This document shows, one piece after another, positions 25,776 through 38,903 of a stretch of 64,000 bases of DNA (position 1 is its first letter; each line of letters begins with the position of its first letter). The notes beneath the pieces were generated by a model. That model was not told the DNA's origin and did no database searches. It saw only the letters and a list, made by a program, of their open reading frames with translations. The DNA comes from an uncultured Clostridium sp. (GTDB lineage Bacteria > Bacillota > Clostridia > TANB77 > CAG-508), in the NCBI GenBank assembly GCA_900553945.1, contig USFR01000009.1, forward strand, positions 3,070 to 67,069, in the 5' to 3' direction. Made by a program: the position numbers and the translations under genes.

Positions 25776-26124
25776 TGGTGGAGATGAGGAGAGTCGAACT
25801 CCTGTCCAGAATTTCATCCATATAAACTTCTCCGAGTGCAGTTTGTTATTATTTCTCATTCTAAAAAAGTTAACAAACAAACTTGTTTAGAACATATCTT
25901 CTAAAATCCCTTTATTACCGAAGAAATAATAAATTCGTTTCCTACTAATCGGCGCCTTATCTAAAGCCGTAGGTTGCTAAAGTAAGACGTTGCTGCAATT
26001 AGGCAGCAAATGCTAATTCGTTATTATCAGCGTTTATTTTTAATTTGTACCTTTTTAGGTGGCCAGGTACGTCCACCACTCGCTATCTATACTTCAAAAA
26101 AGCTGTCGAAACCTTTACATCCCC
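25776..26124 (-). ncRNA. ssrA: tmRNA (SsrA)
   Basis: On the minus strand the 5' end is GGGGATGTAAAGGTTTCGACAGC and the 3' end is CAGGAGTTCGACTCTCCTCATCTCCACCA. The internal tag frame GCT GAT AAT AAC GAA TTA GCA TTT GCT GCC TAA encodes ADNNELAFAA. Confidence 0.93.
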
Positions 26125-26893: not shown

Positions 26894-26982
26894 GCAGGTG
26901 TGGCGGAATTGGCAGACGCACAGGACTTAAAATCCTGCGGGACCTAAATCCCGTATCGGTTCGACTCCGATCACCTGCACCA
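26894..26982 (+). tRNA. tRNA-Leu (anticodon UAA), CCA encoded
   Basis: The acceptor stem gcaggtg/cacctgc, the anticodon loop cttaaaa, a long variable arm and the T-loop ggttcgactcc are all present. It ends in acca. Confidence 0.93.
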
Positions 26983-29371: not shown

Positions 29372-30574
29372 TTATTTCATCATTTCTTTTATCATTATGT
29401 CTGCAAAAACTCCATACCCAATCTGAGGGTCTGAAACTAAAACATTCGTTAATGCTCCAACTATTTTATTATTTTGAATTATTGGTGACCCACTCATTCC
29501 ACAAATTATTCCACCTGTACTATTCAATAAATTTTCATCTGTTATTTTTATTTGCATACTTTTATTATTAGAATTATTTTCCGAATCTATAGATGTTATT
29601 TCTACTTTATATTCTTGTGTATCATTATTATTTACTGTTGATAATATTGTTGCCTCTCCTAGTTCTATTTCGTCTCTTAATGCGATTTCTAGGCCTGCGG
29701 AATATTTATTATTTGTTATTATGTTTTCATTTAAACTCCCAAATATTCCGAAATTCATATTTTGCATTACTGTTCCGATTGTTGCTTGTTTTGCAATACT
29801 TCCTTTTATTTCTCCTGGAATACCTTTTCTACCTTTACTTACGCTTACTATTTTAGAATTAACCAATTCTCCTGTTTGAATATCTAATAATTCTCCTGTA
29901 TCACCGTCTGAAATTCCATGACCTAATGCTGCAAACTTTTTACTTTCGGGTTCGTAAAAAGCCATTGTCCCTACTCCACTTGCACTATCTCTAATCCATA
30001 AACCTAGCTTATATTCACCTTTTGCGGTATTTGCTGGTTTTATGTTTGCTGTATATGTTTCTCCACCACTGGCATATTTTATCTCAATATCTCTTCCGTT
30101 TGATTCATTAACAATTTTCTGCAGTGTTTGTGTTGAATCTATTTCTTGATGATCAACTTCTAAAATTGTATCTCCCTCTTTTATATTAATTGACTCATAT
30201 GGCTTTTCTATCTTATTTTCTATATTTTTTACTTCTGTTGTTCCTATAACTAAAACTCCATTCGTATATAATTTTAGTCCTATTAGATTTCCTGTTGGAA
30301 TGACCTTTATTCTTGGATATGTTGTTACAGCTATTTCTTTGACTTTCATATTTCCAAATAACATTACATCCATTTTTGTTGTTTCTAAATTTTTATCTTG
30401 CCATGTTTCTTGAACCTCTTTATTTTTTCTTTTAAATTCAATTCCAAATACTCTTTTTAATTGTATGTTTTCACCATTTAACAAAAAAATTCTAGAAGGA
30501 AGTTGCGTAATATTAGAAGCATATACTAATATTACTAGTAATATTAAAATTATAAAAAAGTATCTTTTTTTCAT
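29372..30574 (-). CDS. spoIVB: SpoIVB sporulation signalling peptidase (S55)
   Basis: 400 aa. N-terminal anchor, PDZ-like region, GTMAFYEPESKKFAALGHGISD and GMSGSPIIQNNKIVGALT catalytic motifs. Confidence 0.88.
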   Translation of the reverse strand: MKKRYFFIILILLVILVYASNITQLPSRIFLLNGENIQLKRVFGIEFKRKNKEVQETWQDKNLETTKMDVMLFGNMKVKEIAVTTYPRIKVIPTGNLIGLKLYTNGVLVIGTTEVKNIENKIEKPYESINIKEGDTILEVDHQEIDSTQTLQKIVNESNGRDIEIKYASGGETYTANIKPANTAKGEYKLGLWIRDSASGVGTMAFYEPESKKFAALGHGISDGDTGELLDIQTGELVNSKIVSVSKGRKGIPGEIKGSIAKQATIGTVMQNMNFGIFGSLNENIITNNKYSAGLEIALRDEIELGEATILSTVNNNDTQEYKVEITSIDSENNSNNKSMQIKITDENLLNSTGGIICGMSGSPIIQNNKIVGALTNVLVSDPQIGYGVFADIMIKEMMK

Positions 30575-30621
30575 TGATTACCTCTTTTATAATTTTTCCC
30601 TATTTGCATTTTTTATATACT

Positions 30622-30650
30622 TAAAAAAAGATGAAATAAATTCATCTTTT
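30622..30650 (-). terminator. Terminator closing the filament operon
   Basis: Stem aaagatgaa/ttcatcttt immediately after the stop of the 807-aa gene, with a T-run on the minus strand. Confidence 0.65.
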
Positions 30651-33073
30651 TATCTATTAACGTAGTCGTTTGTTTTATATAGGTTATCTCTAATTTTTGC
30701 TAAATATGTATACATCGATTTTCGTCTTTTATTAAACTCTGTTTCATTTATAAGATATTCTCCACCAGTTGGAACATTTGAATTGTTATATGGATTTACA
30801 TATTCGCTTCCATCAAAATTTAAGTATTTTCCATTAACGTAAATTACTAAATCATTATTTTCTGCTTTATAAACCCTATATATGTCTCCATCATAATATT
30901 TTACTACTGGTATATAATTTCCAGATATTATACAATTATAACATCCTTCATTTTGATGGTCATATATATATTTTACCTCACTTCCTGTTGGAAGATCAAT
31001 TAAATTAGCCAAAGCCGCTTGGTCTGTTATTTCAGTTCCTATATATAAGTCATCTGCAAATTGTGAAGATTGATCATCAGCCCCGGTATTTACATTCTTA
31101 GGCATGTAATACTTGTTTGTTGCATCATCATAAAAACAAATAATAGTCGGATCATTTATTCCCCTTATTCTTGTATTTATTTTATGTGCATCATATTTAA
31201 ATTCTGCACTTTGGTCTGCTTCATATATATCAGTTGAATTATTATCGCTCAAATCACTGCAATCAATTTTGTGATAACTACTATCACTTTTTTCTTCTCT
31301 TCCTATTTTTGAAGTAAAATACAAATTTTCTAAGCTTACAGCTGTATTGTTATTATTACTTTTTATGACTGCATAATTATTAAATGTTGTTGTTCCACAT
31401 GGTATTCCTTGCATGAATGACACCATTGATATATTATTTAAAATATCATTCCAATCATCACTTTTTAACATAGGTAATTTATAACTTATACCTGATGCTA
31501 TATCCATATTATGATTTTCATTATATGTTGATATTGCTAAATTTAAATTGTACTGAATTGAGTTTTTTATTATATCCTGTTTATGTTTTACAAATATTGA
31601 ATTTTCACTTTCTGGATCATTCTCTAAATTATCTGTTCTTTTTTCTATATCAAATATTTTTGAATCATCAGATGTAAAGTCAGCATATGCATATGCATTA
31701 TCTACTTGATCAGTCATCTCAAATGCCTGATCTTTTATTTGTACAGTTGAGCTTGCTTTAACATCTTTTAAATTTCTTTCTACCCATTTAGAAAAATAAT
31801 ATGCTTTTATATAATATTCTTTTGCATCTCTGTCATCAATTGTTACACCATTATATGTAACACTAATTCCAGAAAATGAACCACTTTTTAACATATATGT
31901 ATTAACATCTGCACTTTGTTTATCTAGTAATTGTTCAATATCTAAAGTTTCTTTAATTATTTCATCTCCAGTTTGATATCTAACTATAGACATTTTATCT
32001 CTCGTATCCGCATTAATTGTGTCTTTTCTATATTTAGCACAATAATAACTATCTCCAAAATCTTTTTCTTTATCATAATCAAAATAATTTATTAGATAAT
32101 AATCTTCTCCTTGTGATGATTGACCATTTGCTACATTTACAGGAATTGTTACAAATCTCTCATTATTATGTTGATTATTATTTGAATTCTTATTTGCATC
32201 TATGACAGCTTGATATGAGTATGTGCCATTATTTGAAGGTCGAGCCATACTTATTCCAGTTTCTCCATCATTCTTTTTAACAACTCTCAATAGCAAATTG
32301 CCATTTATTGATATTTTCGTAGGATCTATCAAATATCCTGATTTTGTGAATTCTTTTGTTACAGTACTTCCTGTATCTTCTCTTGTACTTAAATCTTTTT
32401 CTCCATACAGTGTTATATAATTATCTAAAGAGTAACTTGCGGTAAAATTAAATTTACCATTATCCTTATCATGATATTGTGCACTATAATAAATAAAAGG
32501 TTTTAGCATATAACTTGTTTCATACTGTACATCTGGATCATCTGAATCCGGAGTGAATTTTGAACTATCATAATCCTCTTTAAATTTTTTTCCGTTGACT
32601 CCATCTGATACAAAATCACTACTATCTACATTTTTACCTTTTTTTAAATACAACACTCTTTTTTGTTTATCTGTTAACGCAACTCCATCATCTGGATTTG
32701 TAGCAACCTTTGATGTATATGTTGGACTATATATATAATATCCATCATATGTTGTAAATAGTATTGCTGGGACATATGGTAAAATCATCTGTTTTGATGC
32801 ACTTGACATTCCTAAATTTGTTGCCAATGTAGTAAAAAAAGTATTAACCGAAGCTAATACATAACTTTTTACTGATTCGCCACTAACTCTTTGCGTATTT
32901 AAAGAGTTCATTTGGTATGCTGCTATAGCATCATATGTAGAATCATTTAATTTTGTTTGATATGTCGTTTGTAATACTAATGTATCTGTTTGTGTTTGTA
33001 TATAATAAGATAGAACAATAGATATTGGTAGTAAAATTAAAACAAATATAATTGCAAAATTCTGATATTTCAT
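30650..33073 (-). CDS. Large N-terminally anchored protein, last gene of the filament operon (candidate tip or accessory subunit)
   Basis: 807 aa. It has a single N-terminal hydrophobic helix (FAIIFVLILLPISIVLSYY). The rest is N/D/S/T/Y-rich and beta-like with no recognised motif. Confidence 0.6.
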   Translation of the reverse strand: MKYQNFAIIFVLILLPISIVLSYYIQTQTDTLVLQTTYQTKLNDSTYDAIAAYQMNSLNTQRVSGESVKSYVLASVNTFFTTLATNLGMSSASKQMILPYVPAILFTTYDGYYIYSPTYTSKVATNPDDGVALTDKQKRVLYLKKGKNVDSSDFVSDGVNGKKFKEDYDSSKFTPDSDDPDVQYETSYMLKPFIYYSAQYHDKDNGKFNFTASYSLDNYITLYGEKDLSTREDTGSTVTKEFTKSGYLIDPTKISINGNLLLRVVKKNDGETGISMARPSNNGTYSYQAVIDANKNSNNNQHNNERFVTIPVNVANGQSSQGEDYYLINYFDYDKEKDFGDSYYCAKYRKDTINADTRDKMSIVRYQTGDEIIKETLDIEQLLDKQSADVNTYMLKSGSFSGISVTYNGVTIDDRDAKEYYIKAYYFSKWVERNLKDVKASSTVQIKDQAFEMTDQVDNAYAYADFTSDDSKIFDIEKRTDNLENDPESENSIFVKHKQDIIKNSIQYNLNLAISTYNENHNMDIASGISYKLPMLKSDDWNDILNNISMVSFMQGIPCGTTTFNNYAVIKSNNNNTAVSLENLYFTSKIGREEKSDSSYHKIDCSDLSDNNSTDIYEADQSAEFKYDAHKINTRIRGINDPTIICFYDDATNKYYMPKNVNTGADDQSSQFADDLYIGTEITDQAALANLIDLPTGSEVKYIYDHQNEGCYNCIISGNYIPVVKYYDGDIYRVYKAENNDLVIYVNGKYLNFDGSEYVNPYNNSNVPTGGEYLINETEFNKRRKSMYTYLAKIRDNLYKTNDYVNR

Positions 33074-33095
33074 AGATCTACCTTTCTACTAAACT

Positions 33096-33623
33096 TTAGT
33101 GTGTTCCATTGTTTTGAACTACCCCTGAATGAGCGCCTGAAATCTGATATGTTCCTTTTCCTGCAATTGCATAAAATGCATTTCTTAATGATTGTGCTAT
33201 TGTAACATCTGTATTTGTTGCTGTTACCGAAATTATATCCCCTTCTTTTAATGTATATTTACCACTAGGACCATATACTTGTTCTTCAATTGTATCTGTG
33301 TATACTGAGTAATAAACATTTTCACCAACTGTAGTACTTGTTGTCCAAGTTGTCTTTTTTCCAACATTGTCATCAATTTTTTTAACTTCAATATCAACAT
33401 TAAAAGAATGTCCTAAAGCTGCTATTTCTTCTTTATATTCTGATAAATCTGATTGTGTTATTGCTCCAACATTTCTTTCTTTATCAACAAATTCAACTGT
33501 TTTTTGTTGTACTGCTTGTTGCGCAACATCATCATTTCTATCAGCGATTGTCATTAGTGGAAAAACAAACATTAATATTGCTGCAATAAAAATTGCAATT
33601 ATTGTTACTAATGTATCATTCAT
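33096..33623 (-). CDS. N-terminally anchored small protein (minor-pilin/TadE-like placement)
   Basis: 175 aa. MNDTLVTIIAIFIAAILMFVFPLMTIADR, then a soluble domain. Its role is inferred from position only. Confidence 0.5.
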   Translation of the reverse strand: MNDTLVTIIAIFIAAILMFVFPLMTIADRNDDVAQQAVQQKTVEFVDKERNVGAITQSDLSEYKEEIAALGHSFNVDIEVKKIDDNVGKKTTWTTSTTVGENVYYSVYTDTIEEQVYGPSGKYTLKEGDIISVTATNTDVTIAQSLRNAFYAIAGKGTYQISGAHSGVVQNNGTH

Positions 33624-33638
33624 TTATTTTCCTCCTCT

Positions 33639-34304
33639 TTAATTAATTAACTTATATGTTATTATAGTTTTAGTATTTGCAGGAACTGTAACTATCTCTT
33701 CACCATATTCATCAACCTGAACATGTCCACTTGTTCTATATTCTATATATGATTCCAAAAAAGTTTCATCTTTATATTTTATTAAATTATTGGTGCTATA
33801 ATCTAAATTCTTCATATGTTCTGATTTAATTCCATATATATAAGAATTTATTCTTTCTATATAATATGGATTTTTTTCTTGATTAACCCATGGTGCACCA
33901 AATAATGATGCTTTTTTTCCTTTTCCATATAGTCCTTCTAGATATGCATAATATTGTACATCTTCCTGACTACTTGGCTGAAAATTATTTTTGGCAATCG
34001 CCTCAATATTAGTATCAAATATTTGTAAAATAGTTCCATCACTATCTAATATTCTTACTGTTATATTAGCATCTTGCTGATGATATCTATAGAGGGTAGG
34101 TATTATTGTTTCAATACCTACCTTTCTAGTTACATTATTTTTTAATGGATCTACCCTTGAAAAATAATTATCAATTTTTAAGTTATCTAAAACAGCATCT
34201 GTTGTTGTTCTAGCTTTACTGAACATAAACATTGCTATTGAAAAGGCTAGTACAAACAACATTGCAGCACCAGCCATTTTTAAAGCATCTACTGCATTTT
34301 CCAT
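33639..34304 (-). CDS. Pilin-like protein, MEN-leader paralog 4
   Basis: 221 aa. N-terminus MENAVDALKMAGAAMLFVLAFSIAMFMF matches the three paralogs upstream. Confidence 0.6.
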   Translation of the reverse strand: MENAVDALKMAGAAMLFVLAFSIAMFMFSKARTTTDAVLDNLKIDNYFSRVDPLKNNVTRKVGIETIIPTLYRYHQQDANITVRILDSDGTILQIFDTNIEAIAKNNFQPSSQEDVQYYAYLEGLYGKGKKASLFGAPWVNQEKNPYYIERINSYIYGIKSEHMKNLDYSTNNLIKYKDETFLESYIEYRTSGHVQVDEYGEEIVTVPANTKTIITYKLIN

Positions 34305-34360
34305 TTTCGATTACCTTTCATTTTTTATTAAATTATTAATTTTATCCATTATTGCTATCA

Positions 34361-34888
34361 CTAAGGATTAGTTGTAGATGATGATTCATATTCGCTAACT
34401 GTAACAGAATATATGATTCCATCTTTTTCTTGCTCTTCCACTTTATAGTTTCTTCCTGCACTTATTTTTTGCTTTAATTTTCTATATTCTGTTCTAGCAG
34501 CATCAATGTTATCTTGGTTATTTTCACCTGATTTATCTTCATAAACATTGGCTGCCTTGCCAACTGCTTCTAGTGGATCAGTTGTAGTAGCGAAACCTGA
34601 AATATTTAATGCATGTATACTTATAAATTTACCACTTTCATTAACATATTGGCTGTTTTGACTAATTACGTCTTCTATCATTTGTTTTACGTCAGAACCT
34701 TTTTTAGAATTTCCCAAATATTTTTTTATCATTGAATTATACATTTCTTTATCTTGTTGTCCCATTTGTCCTGCCGCTGTTTGTATTGTACTCTGAGCTG
34801 AATTGTATATATACATACCGATAGCAATAAGTAATATACAAATTAAAATTGCACCTGCAATTAGAAGTGCCTTTGAAGCGTTCTCCAT
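34361..34888 (-). CDS. Pilin-like protein, MEN-leader paralog 3
   Basis: 175 aa. MENASKALLIAGAILICILLIAIGMYIY, then the shared Y/FN..I/F..YLG...GSDV block. Confidence 0.6.
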   Translation of the reverse strand: MENASKALLIAGAILICILLIAIGMYIYNSAQSTIQTAAGQMGQQDKEMYNSMIKKYLGNSKKGSDVKQMIEDVISQNSQYVNESGKFISIHALNISGFATTTDPLEAVGKAANVYEDKSGENNQDNIDAARTEYRKLKQKISAGRNYKVEEQEKDGIIYSVTVSEYESSSTTNP

Positions 34889-34957
34889 CTTTATTCCTCC
34901 TCTTTTTCTTTTGATTATTTATTATCTTATTCCTTCATGGAAATATTAAAAACTTAT

Positions 34958-35398
34958 TTATTCTTTTTCTTTAAATGTTATTGATTTAACTTGTCCTGTT
35001 TTTTTATGATATTGTACATCTGATACTTCAAAAATTAAATCACTAAATGCATATTCCACTTTTTCAACTCCTGCATTTTTGTCTAACATTAATTTTTCCA
35101 TTTCCATCGTAGAATCACTTGATTTAACTTTTAAGTAAACTTTTATAGAATTTTTATCATTTTCTACGTACATATTGTTCTCATCTTTTGAGATTTTATT
35201 TTTATTATTTAAATCAATTGCTTTATTCATTAATGACACGATTGTGTTAATCTTTACTATACTTTTTTCATATGCCAAAAATTCATTATTAACTTTTGTA
35301 ACTTCATATTTCTGTTTTGAATATTCTGTGTACCATGCAAAACAAATTGTAACAATTGTTATTACACATACAAGAATTATGATTAATATTTTCTTCAT
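34958..35398 (-). CDS. Small membrane-anchored protein inside the pilin-like gene block
   Basis: 146 aa. The MKKILIIILVCVITIVTICFAWY anchor lacks the MEN motif. Confidence 0.5.
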   Translation of the reverse strand: MKKILIIILVCVITIVTICFAWYTEYSKQKYEVTKVNNEFLAYEKSIVKINTIVSLMNKAIDLNNKNKISKDENNMYVENDKNSIKVYLKVKSSDSTMEMEKLMLDKNAGVEKVEYAFSDLIFEVSDVQYHKKTGQVKSITFKEKE

Positions 35399-35468
35399 AA
35401 ATTCCTCTTTATTATATTATATGTATTTGTAAAATTCAACATTTTTTTTATTTATTGTCTAATATTTC

Positions 35469-36047
35469 CTAGTTAGTATTCTTAAGACTTTCTGCTTCTT
35501 GTAGTTGTAACGATATATCTGTGTCTGGAATAAATGAAGCATGAATTATTCTTCCTGTTTCATTACTTTCTTCTATTTTAATTTTAAATGTTATAATACT
35601 TTTGGCATTTGGTGCTGCATTGCTTTGATAATAACACTGGCTTATTAAATAATTTTGTGCTTTTTTTGAATAGTTTTGAACATCTGCTATTATCGGAGTT
35701 GATTCATTTACATTTTTAATATCAATATGAACAATAGCTTTAGAATTATTATTTACTGTTTCTTCCGAAAAATTATTATTATAATCTTTTGCAAAATTTG
35801 AAAGCGAAATTACATCATATATATTAGCTGATTCTCTCTTTGTATTTCCAGATTCATCTTTTACACCTGCATCTAAATACTTTGTAAAATTTGTATTAAA
35901 TTTGGTTATTTCTGTTGATTGCATTGTTTGATCATATGTTTTTGCTACTCCAGATGCTGCTCTAAATAACCCAGTTGCAATTGCTAATATTAAAATTGCT
36001 ATTAAAGTTCCTGCACCAATTAATAGTGCTTTAGATGCATTTTCCAT
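35469..36047 (-). CDS. Pilin-like protein, MEN-leader paralog 2
   Basis: 192 aa. MENASKALLIGAGTLIAILILAIATGLF, then EITKFNTNFTKYLDAG. Confidence 0.6.
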   Translation of the reverse strand: MENASKALLIGAGTLIAILILAIATGLFRAASGVAKTYDQTMQSTEITKFNTNFTKYLDAGVKDESGNTKRESANIYDVISLSNFAKDYNNNFSEETVNNNSKAIVHIDIKNVNESTPIIADVQNYSKKAQNYLISQCYYQSNAAPNAKSIITFKIKIEESNETGRIIHASFIPDTDISLQLQEAESLKNTN

Positions 36048-36059
36048 CTCGTATCCTTT

Positions 36060-36782
36060 CTATTCTTTTGGTTCAAATTTCATATAATATATTCTACCTA
36101 CCTCGTTATATTTTACATCTGTACATTTATATATAACTTTCTTAAAGTCATTTATTCCTATAGGATCTTTTTCTGTAATAACTGTTTTATCTCCATAACG
36201 TTTTGATGTTTTTTCTATATTATTTCTATCTAGTGTTGATAATTTTTCAAGTTTTCTATATTTTTCATCATCTGTTGAACTCAAATTATATGTAGTTCCT
36301 CCAGTTAATATAACCTCACCTTGAGTTATTTCTGGATTACTGCTTAACCCTAAACCACGGTAAACTGATGCATTTTTAATTTTAACCATTTGGGTAGTTC
36401 CATTTTCATCTTTTTCAGCAATATATGCAGTTTTAGTAACTTTTGACTGCACCGTATCTTTTACTCTTATTTCAATATCCATAGAATATTGAACGTTTTT
36501 ATTGTACTTTCCATTTGGATTAGCCATAATCTGTTGATTTTGTATCTTATTATTTGAAATTGCCATTCCCAAAACTGAAATTACATCAGTACCATACATT
36601 GATGTTTTATCAAAAGCAAGAAATTTTTTGTTAAATTCAGCTGATTCTTGGCTAACTTCCAAATCTCGTTTTGTATTTTCCATAGAACTTACACTACGAA
36701 AAACAAAAACAATAAGTGTTATTAGCATAACCGCTATTAATAATCCCCCTGCTATTTGTAATGCATTTACTGAGTTCTCCAT
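36060..36782 (-). CDS. Pilin-like protein, MEN-leader paralog 1
   Basis: 240 aa. MENSVNALQIAGGLLIAVMLITLIVFVF, then SAEFNKKFLAFD...YGTDVISVL. Confidence 0.6.
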   Translation of the reverse strand: MENSVNALQIAGGLLIAVMLITLIVFVFRSVSSMENTKRDLEVSQESAEFNKKFLAFDKTSMYGTDVISVLGMAISNNKIQNQQIMANPNGKYNKNVQYSMDIEIRVKDTVQSKVTKTAYIAEKDENGTTQMVKIKNASVYRGLGLSSNPEITQGEVILTGGTTYNLSSTDDEKYRKLEKLSTLDRNNIEKTSKRYGDKTVITEKDPIGINDFKKVIYKCTDVKYNEVGRIYYMKFEPKE

Positions 36783-36796
36783 TCTTTACTCCTTTT

Positions 36797-38872
36797 CTAC
36801 ATTTGTGCACTCATATTCTTGAAAGCTTCTGTCATACTTAACAATCCAATTATACATAACGGAGCAATTAAATAACCAATAAACATTGATACCATTGGAG
36901 CAAATCCAACAACCTTTCCTATTAATGATTTTCTTGATATTAGTCTTTCATTTGAGTCTTTACGTTTTTCCTGATAATATGCTCTTTCTGTATCTAGTTC
37001 ATCAAAAGCTTGTCTAATTGGTATTTTTTCAACTGCAGATTGTAAGCTTTCAATAATACGAATTAATTGTGGGAATGCCACATCATTTTTCAATTCTTCC
37101 AAAGCTTCCCATGGACCACTTTCAAAGTTATTTACACATTTCGAAATTGGTTCTCTGAATATATTAGAATATCTTTCTAGCCATTCTAATATCATTTCAA
37201 CATTTACCCTCTCTATTTTCATAAGCATTAGGATAATTGTCTGGAACTGCATTACTTCATTTTCCATTTCCATTTGTCTCATTATCTTTTGGAACATTAA
37301 CATCCATACTGGGCCATAATACGCTATTGTTGCTACCCCAAATGAAATTAAGAATTCAAACCACTTCAAATACTCATTTTGTATTGTAACCAAATCCTTA
37401 TGGATCCATTCTGCCGCAGATGTTATTTCTTCATCTGTAGCTGAACTATAAAAATCATCTTTTCTTAAATCTTTTACAAGCATATCCGTTGTCGTTTTTT
37501 TATCTGATTTATATTTTTCTATGTATTTATTATGAACTTCTAATTCTGCGTATGCTTTTTTTTCTTCTTTTTCACTCATTGATCCTAGTAAATCGTAATC
37601 AGCTCTTGGCTCATCATATATATATTCAATTGTTATGTTATGTAATTCCCAAAACATAAATAGTGCAATAATAAATCCAACGATGGCGCATGCACATCTA
37701 TCTATGTATAGCCATTCTATTTTAAGTTTTGTAGCTGACTCTTTCATCAACTTTATCTTTAGTCTATATTCTTTTGTACCTTCCTTTGGAACAATTTTAT
37801 CAATAAAACTTTTTATATATTTTTTCTTATATAACTTTTGCTCCCAAGGATTTTGCATATCTCTACCTGTGTCAACACTTCCATTATCTTTTAATTTTCT
37901 AACTAATATATAACATATAAATGTCACTACAATTAAAAGCATTTGAACTATAAATCCTGTTTTTCCATCATAGAATGATTTTGTAAAAGAAAACATTCCA
38001 ACTGCCCAGTTTTTTATAGGTTCCAAAAATAGAATAGGTAATGCTGAAATTAAAGCAAGAGATTGAAACACATAATCTAATTTCTCTCTTTTTAAAATCT
38101 CTATTTGCATTTCTTGAGTTATATTATTTAAGTTTTTCAAATATAATGATGCACCATCAGAGTCTTGTCTATCACCAAATTCTTTTGTTAAATATGAAAT
38201 TCCAGCAAATTCTTTTAAGAAACTATTTGGCGCTATATCATAATATTTCTCTAATTCCATTTCTGGATCGTCAGAAATTAATATTTCATAAATTTTTTGT
38301 GCTTGTCTTGAAACATCAAGTTCATCATTTTGAGCAACTTCATAAACTGCTTCTTCAACTAGATTGAATTCATGATATGCATGTCTCATTTCAGAGAACA
38401 TATCAATTTGCTCTTTCAAAAGTTTATTATCTACTTTATCAACCATTCCACTTAGCAATGTTTCTGTAAAGAATAATTCAAATAATAATAATGTTGCTAA
38501 TAATACTACGTTATTTTTTGCAACTACTATAATAACAATTGTTAATGGAATAACAACCAGTATCGCTCTTGTCATCATTTGAGCAGTTTGCATTCTTGTT
38601 AAATATTCATCTTCTAGGTTTATAATTTCTAGTCTTCTTCTTATCTTTAAAATATATCTTCTTAAGAATGGTATTCTAACAAGTATAAGATATATTTTTT
38701 GATACATTATCTCTTTTGAGAATGACTTTGTTTTTGTACCATCAACTAGTGATGCAACAAACTTCGTATTCTTTTTATTAGTGAACTTATTTATTATTAA
38801 AAATGCTACTATTAAAACTCCAAATAGCGCTAGTGCTCCAATTATAAACTTTCCAAGCATTTCATTGGACAT
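36797..38872 (-). CDS. Polytopic membrane protein, candidate platform component (TadB/TadC, T2SS-F-like by position)
   Basis: I use the ATG at 38872 behind the RBS aggaggtg; the track start is a GTG inside that RBS. The protein is 691 aa with several TM clusters separated by large helical cytoplasmic segments. Assignment is by synteny after the ATPase, not by motif. Confidence 0.4.
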   Translation of the reverse strand: MSNEMLGKFIIGALALFGVLIVAFLIINKFTNKKNTKFVASLVDGTKTKSFSKEIMYQKIYLILVRIPFLRRYILKIRRRLEIINLEDEYLTRMQTAQMMTRAILVVIPLTIVIIVVAKNNVVLLATLLLFELFFTETLLSGMVDKVDNKLLKEQIDMFSEMRHAYHEFNLVEEAVYEVAQNDELDVSRQAQKIYEILISDDPEMELEKYYDIAPNSFLKEFAGISYLTKEFGDRQDSDGASLYLKNLNNITQEMQIEILKREKLDYVFQSLALISALPILFLEPIKNWAVGMFSFTKSFYDGKTGFIVQMLLIVVTFICYILVRKLKDNGSVDTGRDMQNPWEQKLYKKKYIKSFIDKIVPKEGTKEYRLKIKLMKESATKLKIEWLYIDRCACAIVGFIIALFMFWELHNITIEYIYDEPRADYDLLGSMSEKEEKKAYAELEVHNKYIEKYKSDKKTTTDMLVKDLRKDDFYSSATDEEITSAAEWIHKDLVTIQNEYLKWFEFLISFGVATIAYYGPVWMLMFQKIMRQMEMENEVMQFQTIILMLMKIERVNVEMILEWLERYSNIFREPISKCVNNFESGPWEALEELKNDVAFPQLIRIIESLQSAVEKIPIRQAFDELDTERAYYQEKRKDSNERLISRKSLIGKVVGFAPMVSMFIGYLIAPLCIIGLLSMTEAFKNMSAQM

Positions 38873-38903
38873 TGTTAGTTGCACCTCCTATTTTTTATTT
38901 GTT

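Follow-up and report, generated by a model that had tools for sequence, protein, structure and literature searches.

A shared N-terminal module on the pilin-like proteins of a Tad-like gene cluster, and a candidate recoded ATPase, in an uncultured gut Clostridium

INTRODUCTION

The closest described relatives of the genes considered here belong to the TANB77 "pilus gene cluster" of Kim CY et al. (2024, Nat Commun 15:10726; PMC11680825), which was found in 122 of 129 TANB77 species and described as having "10-14 genes." In their Table 1, genes 927 to 931 were assigned by structural match to CpaB, TadZ, CpaE, a TadA/CpaF protein with one membrane helix, and a TadC+TadB fusion, respectively (PMC11680825). 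Proteins 932 to 937 were called "pilin-like," and the N-terminal quarter of protein 938 was TadE/PilV-like by structure (PMC11680825). Here we describe the counterpart of this cluster in 64,000 nucleotides of DNA from an uncultured Clostridium sp. (assembly GCA_900553945.1, contig USFR01000009.1, positions 3,070 to 67,069; referred to below as the window), with particular attention to four pilin-like genes whose products begin with the residues MEN and which we call MEN1 to MEN4. The host belongs to CAG-508, a major TANB77 family (PMC11680825).

The published pilin-like label was based on operon context, predicted promoters, and N-in/C-out topology; proteins 932 to 937 were without sequence or structural homology, and no homology among them was reported (PMC11680825). 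None of the terms motif, leader, prepilin, peptidase, N-terminal, or frameshift is used in that text (PMC11680825). The processing of such subunits has been described elsewhere: all prepilins require Gly, Ala, or Ser at position -1 of the cleavage site, and archaeal peptidases require a charged residue at -2 as well; KA↓I, RA↓L, and DA↓V are examples from archaea (PMC4371748). A sequence-only reading of the window had taken the MEN proteins for pilins. The CpaF-type ATPase and Tad-like context speak for that view and the published label agrees with it, but the window holds no prepilin peptidase gene and the modeled MEN protein had no structural match to pilins; the view is partly supported, and it is not new. 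What is new is the MEN module, its fit to the archaeal class III rule, an ectodomain family that joins MEN1, MEN2, and MEN3 to a neighboring protein (p146) and is also found on other anchors, and the recoded ATPase.

RESULTS

Four pilin-like proteins share an N-terminal module

The four MEN genes are listed below. Throughout, the gene numbers of Kim et al. were assigned from the order and lengths of the genes and not from an alignment with the sequences of their representative genome, and an arrow within a sequence marks a predicted cut.

36060..36782, minus strand: MEN1, pilin-like protein of 240 amino acids (aa); gene 932 by order and size; start MENSVNA↓LQIAGG
35469..36047, minus strand: MEN2, pilin-like protein of 192 aa; gene 933 by order; start MENASKA↓LLIGAG
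34361..34888, minus strand: MEN3, 175 aa; gene 935 by order; MENASKAL start; candidate major subunit
33639..34304, minus strand: MEN4, 221 aa; gene 936 by order; start MENAVDA↓LKMAG; ectodomain unrelated to the others

The N-termini (MENSVNAL, MENASKAL, MENASKAL, and MENAVDAL) and the lengths of 175 to 240 aa are exactly those that the sequence-only reading had quoted. Each of the four ATG codons is the earliest possible start past the upstream stop of its open reading frame (ORF), and in all four ORFs the MEN[AS]xxAL start is followed by a hydrophobic helix of 21 uncharged residues. A six-frame translation of the window contained the pattern MEN[AS]..AL four times, always at these starts, and 200 codon-block shuffles contained it 0 times.

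We then examined 290 MEN-type homologues from ∼80 species, taken 3' of the ATPase gene, where most loci carry three or four. The motif, on whose presence in orthologues the earlier reading depended, is kept throughout this set. Position 1 is Met in 100% of the proteins, position 2 is Glu (95%) or Asp (5%), position 3 is Asn (96%) or Asp (4%), and position 4 is Ala in 88%. Position 6 is most often Lys (71%) or Asp (14%) and carries one of the charged residues K/R/D/E in 266 of the 290 (92%); in the window it is Lys in MEN2 and MEN3, Asp in MEN4, and Asn in MEN1. Position 7 is Ala in 288 proteins and Ser in 2, followed by Leu at position 8 (91%), Ile or Met at position 10, and Ala at position 11 (93%). 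Residues 8 to 28 are hydrophobic or small at a mean of 20.7 of 21 positions, and positions 10 to 27 are free of any charged residue in 271 of 290 proteins, the uncharged stretch reaching approximately residue 28. The homologues fall into four groups, each orthologous across ∼80 species, with overall identities between groups of 26% or less. Inside each group, mean identity over residues 1 to 30 is 49 to 73%, compared to 25 to 35% over the remainder.

A shared start of this kind could in principle stem from recent duplication, gene conversion, or a constraint on translation initiation (an A-rich AUG GAA AAU) and not from a signal in the protein, and the nucleotide-level version of this explanation draws some support from codon 2, which is always GAN, and codon 3, which is always RAY. 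Against it, A7, L8, and A11 are conserved too, each through three or four codons. More generally, synonymous codons alternate at the conserved positions (GAA/GAG, AAT/AAC, four Ala codons, and four or more Leu codons), and because of this variation we conclude that selection acts at the protein level. The low identity between groups, together with orthology over ∼80 species, makes the duplication ancient, and a recent one is further at odds with the unrelated ectodomain of MEN4. We therefore regard this family of explanations as extremely improbable; codon variation and the shuffles rule out chance and recent duplication as origins of the motif. The shared MEN start is an undescribed class of N-terminal signal, although the pilin-like label itself had already been published.

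The MEN module fits the archaeal class III rule

Each of the 290 N-termini was scored against three processing rules: the archaeal-type rule of Gly, Ala, or Ser at -1 with a charged residue at -2 (PMC4371748); the bacterial rule, G-hydrophobic-xxx-E/D; and the Flp rule, G....E[YF] within the first 40 residues. The archaeal rule agreed with 266 of the 290 proteins (A/S at -1 and K/R/D/E at -2), compared to 0/290 for the Flp rule and 0/290 for the bacterial G-1/E+5 rule, Glu at +5 being absent from the whole set. The earlier suggestion that an archaeal-style pattern fits better than the bacterial ones thus holds well beyond the window. Under the archaeal rule, the cleavage point is predicted to lie after Ala7.

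Profile models of known signals did not recover the module. N-methyl and TIGR pilin models gave nothing above noise for MEN proteins, and archaeal pilin and class III signal models gave no score among the 71 MEN proteins scanned. TadE (PF07811) matched neither these 71 proteins nor 50 sequences of p175 and p807, the last two proteins of the operon (see below). One lead, the archaeal DUF515 (PF04415), was rejected as subthreshold, with 6 of 71 proteins matched at a best E of 0.002; the two alignments we inspected covered the membrane-helix region of MEN3-type proteins.

One ectodomain family sits behind several kinds of anchor

To compare the remainder of these proteins, residues 1 to 33 were stripped before profiles were aligned with hhalign. 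The ectodomains of MEN1 and MEN2 matched at 98.4% (E, 7e-15), those of MEN2 and MEN3 at 95.7%, and those of MEN1 and MEN3 at 93.1%. The same ectodomain occurs in a further product of the operon:

34958..35398, minus strand: p146, 146 aa; gene 934 by order; MEN1-3 ectodomain behind an ordinary MKK+hydrophobic N-terminus

The p146 ectodomain matched MEN1 at 99.4% (E, 9e-22), MEN2 at 98.7%, and MEN3 at 85.7%, and Kim et al. predicted a signal peptide for its equivalent, gene 934 (PMC11680825). The ectodomains of MEN4, p175, and p807 found no partner (below 2%, and below 1% for MEN4 against the other MEN proteins), so that MEN4 overlaps with the other MEN proteins only over its N-terminal ∼37 residues. 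The sequence-only reading had called the four genes paralogous, which is right for the N-terminal module and wrong for the whole proteins. It had also noted a downstream block in three of them; the homology of MEN1 to MEN3 is real (93 to 98%), but the G[ST]DV element of that block is present in just two. The AlphaFold model of MEN3, the only member of the MEN family modeled, had a pLDDT of 80.8 and shows a helix at residues 3 to 33 and, after it, a head in which several helices are inserted among four strands.

No Pfam model exists for the MEN1-3 ectodomain family. An exhaustive profile search with it returned 2763 clusters at 50% identity, 1213 of them at an E of 1e-10 or below. Of the best 146 clusters, 88 begin with the MEN module and the remainder have other N-termini. 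Alternative anchors (in P0245, P0251, P0253, P0256, P0262, P0265, P0278, and P0297) include lipoprotein signal peptides with an LTGC lipobox (P0245 and P0251), and further contexts comprise multipass anchors, long N-terminal regions, longer multidomain proteins, and a tandem duplication. Because the same domain sits behind lipoprotein signals, it acts outside the membrane, and this extracytoplasmic location in turn supports an N-in/C-out topology for the MEN proteins. Some MEN3 orthologues carry C-terminal tails rich in Pro, Ser, and Thr.

In other species, MEN3-like genes also occur as orphans away from the operon, flanked by glmS and neuB (loci L086 and L087, 10001-10504). These paralogues have the same ectodomain behind a six-residue leader, M[KR]xEKG↓[SA], and the start M[KR]xEKG[SA]I is found in P0041, P0050, P0052, P0246, P0248, P0255, P0274, and P0284. 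The canonical-looking K-G↓S leader of these relatives makes cleavage at K-A↓L in the MEN proteins more credible.

The operon corresponds to the TANB77 pilus cluster

The MEN genes are part of a tightly packed operon of 12 genes (30650-43457), all on the minus strand, that encodes in order a CpaB-like protein, two ParA-like proteins, an ATPase, a platform protein, and seven bitopic proteins. This order is kept in all loci examined. Besides the MEN proteins and p146, its members are as follows.

42495..43457, minus strand: CpaB/RcpC-like bitopic protein of 320 aa; gene 927 by order; weak hints of SAF domains
41772..42488, minus strand: degenerate MinD/ParA-like (TadZ-like) protein of 238 aa; gene 928 by order; family profile against PDB MinD, E 0.013
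40919..41767, minus strand: degenerate ParA-like (CpaE-like) protein of 282 aa; gene 929 by order; family profile against PDB ParA 3ea0, E 0.004
38904..40872, minus strand: CpaF/TadA-like ATPase; gene 930 by order; two overlapping frames with a +1 shift; N-terminal membrane helix
36797..38884, minus strand: candidate platform, polytopic protein of 695 aa; gene 931 by order; TadC+TadB fusion according to Kim et al.
33096..33623, minus strand: p175, bitopic protein of 175 aa; gene 937 by order; M-x-D-[ST]-L-I-T start and conserved FPLM
30650..33073, minus strand: p807, bitopic protein of 807 aa; gene 938 by order; equivalent of the tested "pilin 938"

Judged by gene order, comparable sizes, and lineage, the operon is the TANB77 cluster of Kim et al. 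Their representative genome was chosen "based on intactness," and its 12 proteins measure 358, 231, 280, 640, 693, 165, 170, 143, 146, 237, 178, and 621 aa (PMC11680825). The related locus L060, with the same order, encodes proteins of 316, 233, 281, 390+276, 696, 223, 146, 145, 148, 249, 174, and 616 aa. With respect to lineage, relatives of the ATPase were found in at least 376 species-level genomes, and the best 80 are all from metagenome-assembled genomes of uncultured gut Clostridia (human, rabbit, ruminant, chicken, and mouse); named relatives are Clostridium sp. CAG:508, CAG:273, and Candidatus Scatovivens. The window has a GC content of about 28%.

As called, none of the 12 operon products scored above the cutoff of any Pfam or NCBIfam model. 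Once its frame was repaired, the ATPase (655 aa) matched PDB CpaF structures at an E of 7e-10 over 270 residues (8rkd and 9e24, E about 1e-9) and narrowly passed the Pfam T2SSE cutoff (25.5 bits versus 24.9), which relates it to CpaF. Characterized CpaF/TadA proteins are, as far as is known, soluble. Residues 1 to 25 of the window's ATPase form a membrane helix (MVNAILIILVIFAVLFYIAYKIK), and the protein has ∼260 extra N-terminal residues. The 320-aa CpaB-like protein probably starts at a conserved MAMNPMQRK, 11 codons into its ORF. For p175 and p807, a lead to DUF4320 was rejected after only 3 of 50 sequences matched, all below threshold; a role for p175 as a TadE/TadF-like minor subunit is possible.

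Within the MEN set, MEN3 stands out. Its group is the shortest (mean, 157 aa), nearly every species has a GGAGG Shine-Dalgarno sequence before it, and its N-terminus reads MENASKAL[IL]IAG in 42 of 43 sequences, with 73% pairwise identity over residues 1 to 30. The Shine-Dalgarno sequence, small size, and conserved N-terminus suggest that MEN3 is the probable major subunit.

A proposed Tad-type filament and its alternatives

With slightly better than even confidence, we read the MEN proteins as subunits of a Tad-type pilus of TANB77, with a class III-like signal cut after Ala7 by an unlinked peptidase, MEN3 as the major subunit, and p175 and p807 at a TadE/TadG-like tip. Residues 1 to ∼30 would serve as a targeting-and-assembly module composed of a seven-residue cytoplasmic leader, M-[ED]-[ND]-A-x-[K/D]-A, and the 21-residue uncharged helix. 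The proteins would enter the membrane in an N-in/C-out orientation, and the leader would most likely be cut after Ala7 by a class III-type (A24) peptidase encoded elsewhere in the genome. The TadB/C-like platform, powered by the membrane-anchored CpaF-like ATPase, would then pull the helices from the membrane into the filament core, leaving the fast-evolving ectodomains to point outward. MEN1, MEN2, and MEN4 would be minor or alternative subunits, and p175 and p807 may be tip or priming subunits.

A number of observations weigh against this interpretation. No filament has been sighted so far, and TANB77 is uncultured. We found no A24 prepilin peptidase in the operon, among the polytopic membrane proteins of the window, or among the called genes within 10 kb on either side in three related contigs. 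No MEN protein matched a pilin family of Pfam, NCBIfam, or PDB (nor did any match a characterized non-pilin family, a possibility that the sequence-only reading had raised). The candidate platform had no Pfam match and no PDB profile match, and its AlphaFold model (pLDDT, 59.7) had no meaningful Foldseek match; its reported assignment to TadB/C is that of Kim et al. (PMC11680825) and was not confirmed here. The leader itself is unusual: its net charge is 0 in paralogues 1 to 3 and about -1.8 in paralogue 4, compared to the basic leaders of known prepilins, the Asn at -2 of the window's MEN1 fits the class III rule poorly, and conservation is stronger at M-[ED]-[ND] than at the -2 residue of the proposed cleavage site, which is unexpected in a leader that is discarded. 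An invariant M-[ED]-[ND] beside a varying -2 residue suggests that the N-terminus may stay in the mature protein.

One way to account for the leader would be a Tad-type filament that is built without any prepilin peptidase, in which Met1, Glu/Asp2, and Asn/Asp3 are part of the mature subunit and the acidic residue 2 takes the charge-neutralizing role of Glu5. This would explain why a Gram-positive Tad set that is otherwise full (the 12-gene operon), and the 64-kb window around it, hold no peptidase gene, why the leader is not basic, and why positions 1 to 3 stayed invariant, through synonymous codons and beyond the -2 residue, while the ectodomains diverged beyond recognition. Methionine aminopeptidase normally keeps Met before Glu, which also counts in its favor. 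On the other side, Tad systems of other bacteria can have their peptidase gene elsewhere than at the pilus locus, the core of such a filament would have to accommodate a buried Lys or Asp charge from position 6, and position 7 is invariably Ala or Ser, as a -1 residue should be. The canonical K-G↓S site of the orphan paralogues hints at prepilin processing in these genomes, and every type IV filament characterized so far uses an A24 peptidase (PMC4371748). We consider uncleaved subunits of this kind unlikely. In some species, a membrane protein of 134 to 141 aa is encoded 5' of the operon, with, by eye, about three membrane helices and a Cys-rich tail; we rejected it as a TadV candidate on seeing no paired-Asp/GxGD motif, and it does not occur in the window.

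The ectodomains raise a separate difficulty for a Tad-type filament. The sequence-only reading had proposed a structural comparison with pilins, and this comparison did not support it: the best PDB match of the MEN3 model in Foldseek had an E of 0.59, none fell below 0.5, and no pilin was among the matches. Moreover, from its distribution the ectodomain is a generic extracellular module, present also on lipoproteins and multipass proteins, and is not specific to pilins. Accordingly, the MEN proteins could instead be ordinary bitopic N-in/C-out proteins, of the membrane or facing the wall, with functions in adhesion, binding, or a stator or alignment complex. The conserved helix would then only dock them to the Tad-like machine or mark them as its substrates, much as happens in a pseudopilus or a secretion system. 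The spread of the 2763-cluster family to lipoproteins, multipass anchors, and longer proteins is what this explanation would expect, as are the lack of structural likeness to pilins and the presence of the ectodomain on p146 without a MEN module; class III signals, too, are known from nonfilament proteins such as the sugar-binding subunits of the "bindosome" (PMC4371748). Yet one N-terminal module on unrelated heads is the typical look of pilin families, as is an N-terminus far better conserved than the remainder. The classic signature of major and minor pilins combines a strict module of this sort, an uncharged 21-residue helix, paralogues in a row after ATPase and platform genes, and one short member with a strong translation signal. 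To our knowledge, common N-termini are not a feature of the alignment-complex proteins of other systems. A nonfilament role is, in our judgment, doubtful, and we continue to favor Tad-type pilus subunits.

The ATPase gene is a candidate for programmed +1 frameshifting

The gene for the CpaF-like ATPase was called as two overlapping ORFs of 402 and 271 aa, and gene callers split it likewise in most related genomes examined. Deleting a single C restores the Walker A motif GEQGCGKTT. On the minus strand, the site reads TGT (39735-39733), C (39732), GGA (39731-39729), which places the shift inside Walker A, between GEQGC and GKTT. We compared this site across 80 species (loci L003-L085 among them). 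In 67 of the 80, the sequence is GGN GAR CAR GGN TGY C GGA AAR ACN ACN ATG, and in the other 13 a single frame, TGY GGT AAA ACA ACA, encodes GEQGCGKTT.

The pattern of variation changes frame at the extra C. On its 5' side, codons vary only synonymously when read in frame 0, and stops abound in the +1 frame; from GGA on, it is the +1 frame in which all variation is synonymous, while continued reading in frame 0 gives amino acid changes and meets a stop after 10 to 43 codons. A conserved site with frame-switched synonymous variation rules out a sequencing or assembly error, or a pseudogene, as the cause of the split. In both platform and ATPase trees, species with the in-frame gene are spread over at least four separate clades, and the deep-branching clade is wholly frameshifted.

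The codon at the shift is uncommon. The window has 5 CGG codons in 16,659, four of them in a single ORF (45057-45650), and in 960 operon ORFs CGG makes up 100 of 10,766 Arg codons, of which 66 lie at the frameshift site. GGA is the commonest Gly codon. Taken together, these features make the ATPase gene a candidate for programmed +1 frameshifting and fit a hungry-codon, Ty3-like shift. The same pattern, a rare CGG_A with a base inserted 5' of GGA, has been described in glass-sponge mitochondria (PMC5009743). A slip of Lys-tRNA on the A-run, with GCRKTT as its product, would be an alternative. The related loci compared contained no tRNA genes. We found no report of this frameshift in the literature, the text of Kim et al. 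included.

Joined to the uncleaved subunits considered above, the frameshift invites a broader conjecture: TANB77 would have no prepilin peptidase at all, the MEN proteins would be the first uncleaved type IV subunits, and pilus output would be throttled by an obligatory +1 frameshift in the machine's only ATPase. We think this combination unlikely.

Neighboring DNA

The operon is followed directly by spoIVB (Peptidase_S55 plus PDZ; 29372-30574), which is found at the equivalent place in most relatives inspected (L017, L024, L060, L083, and L084). A likely end of the operon lies between them:

30621..30649, minus strand: likely operon terminator, an AT-rich hairpin (AAAGATGAA-TTTA-TTCATCTTT) plus T-run, directly after the p807 stop and upstream of spoIVB

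This hairpin was read by eye, as the consensus scan demands three G-C pairs and missed it; in the AT-rich DNA of the window, the promoter and terminator consensus scan was uninformative. With a terminator-like hairpin between operon and spoIVB, their link may be positional only. On the other side, direct repeats (AAAGATTACAAAAAGATTACAAAAAGATT) lie within 43500-43585 on the minus strand, just 5' of a promoter-like site (TTTACT-17-TACAAT) before the first operon gene, and they may be a putative regulator binding site. No Rfam element, riboswitches included, was found near the operon. A SASP gene is found upstream in L001 and L003-L005.

Farther out, the ORF at 45057-45650 on the plus strand, the sole plus-strand gene of its neighborhood, encodes 197 aa with a weak match to the HaeII restriction enzyme (E, 3.5e-4) and is probably foreign DNA. 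The window also holds ordinary housekeeping RNAs, namely a transfer-messenger RNA (tmRNA) gene (25776-26124, minus strand; tag ADNNELAFAA) and tRNA-Leu(TAA) (26894-26982, plus strand).

DISCUSSION

TANB77 abundance and the abundance of "pilin-like" genes track with the response to anti-PD-1 therapy, and mice have received protein 938 of the cluster by injection, as an adjuvant-like agent (PMC11680825). Which antigens are displayed, and how they are to be expressed correctly, depends on the identity of the major subunit, the position of the mature N-terminus, and whether the ATPase is made only by recoding. The recoding, which we rate at least as interesting as the MEN motif, also bears on why gene callers split the ATPase in two. 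Tad-derived bacterial subunits that follow the archaeal class III rule, or that remain uncleaved, would be relevant both to the proposal that Tad pili came from archaea and to the question of how strict the requirement for a peptidase is. Finally, the ectodomain family, with its 2763 clusters, is a sizeable undescribed extracellular domain.

Comparison with known pilus systems

Among known systems, the locus resembles Tad/Flp (type IVc) pili in its machinery, with a CpaF/TadA-type ATPase and CpaB-, TadZ/CpaE-, and, according to Kim et al., TadB/C-like partners, and with several pilin-like genes after the machine genes. It departs from them in that the TANB77 cluster lacks a TadV/CpaA gene, the ATPase is membrane anchored and carries a +1 frameshift, and the platform is one fused protein. 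The subunits differ as well: whereas Flp pilins measure ∼50 to 80 aa and carry G↓xxxxEY, the MEN proteins of the window have 175 to 240 aa and a globular head, and the Flp motif occurs in 0/290. Bacterial type IVa and IVb pilins and pseudopilins have Gly at -1 together with Glu or Asp at +5, a combination likewise seen in 0/290 MEN proteins.

In their signal, the MEN proteins are closer to archaeal class III pilins (Aap, Ups, Haloferax PilA, and Epd). They share with these a short leader, Ala or Ser at -1 (100%), a charged residue at -2 (92%), a hydrophobic domain from +1 without Glu at +5, and a similar size with a globular head. Unlike the archaeal pilins, they are made by a bacterial host, with no homologue of PibD, FlaK, or EppA found nearby, and they have an invariant M-[ED]-[ND] start, a nonbasic leader, and no match to a Pfam archaeal-pilin family. 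In Epd pilins in particular, position +1 is Gln and position +5 is Glu, both of which the MEN proteins lack. The TadE, TadF, and TadG pseudopilins and the type IV minor pilins offer a third comparison, in that they too are bitopic, fall in a similar size range, and are encoded after the platform gene, several to a locus. The MEN proteins have no TadE (PF07811) or N-methyl-site match, and a TadE-like role better fits p175 and p807.

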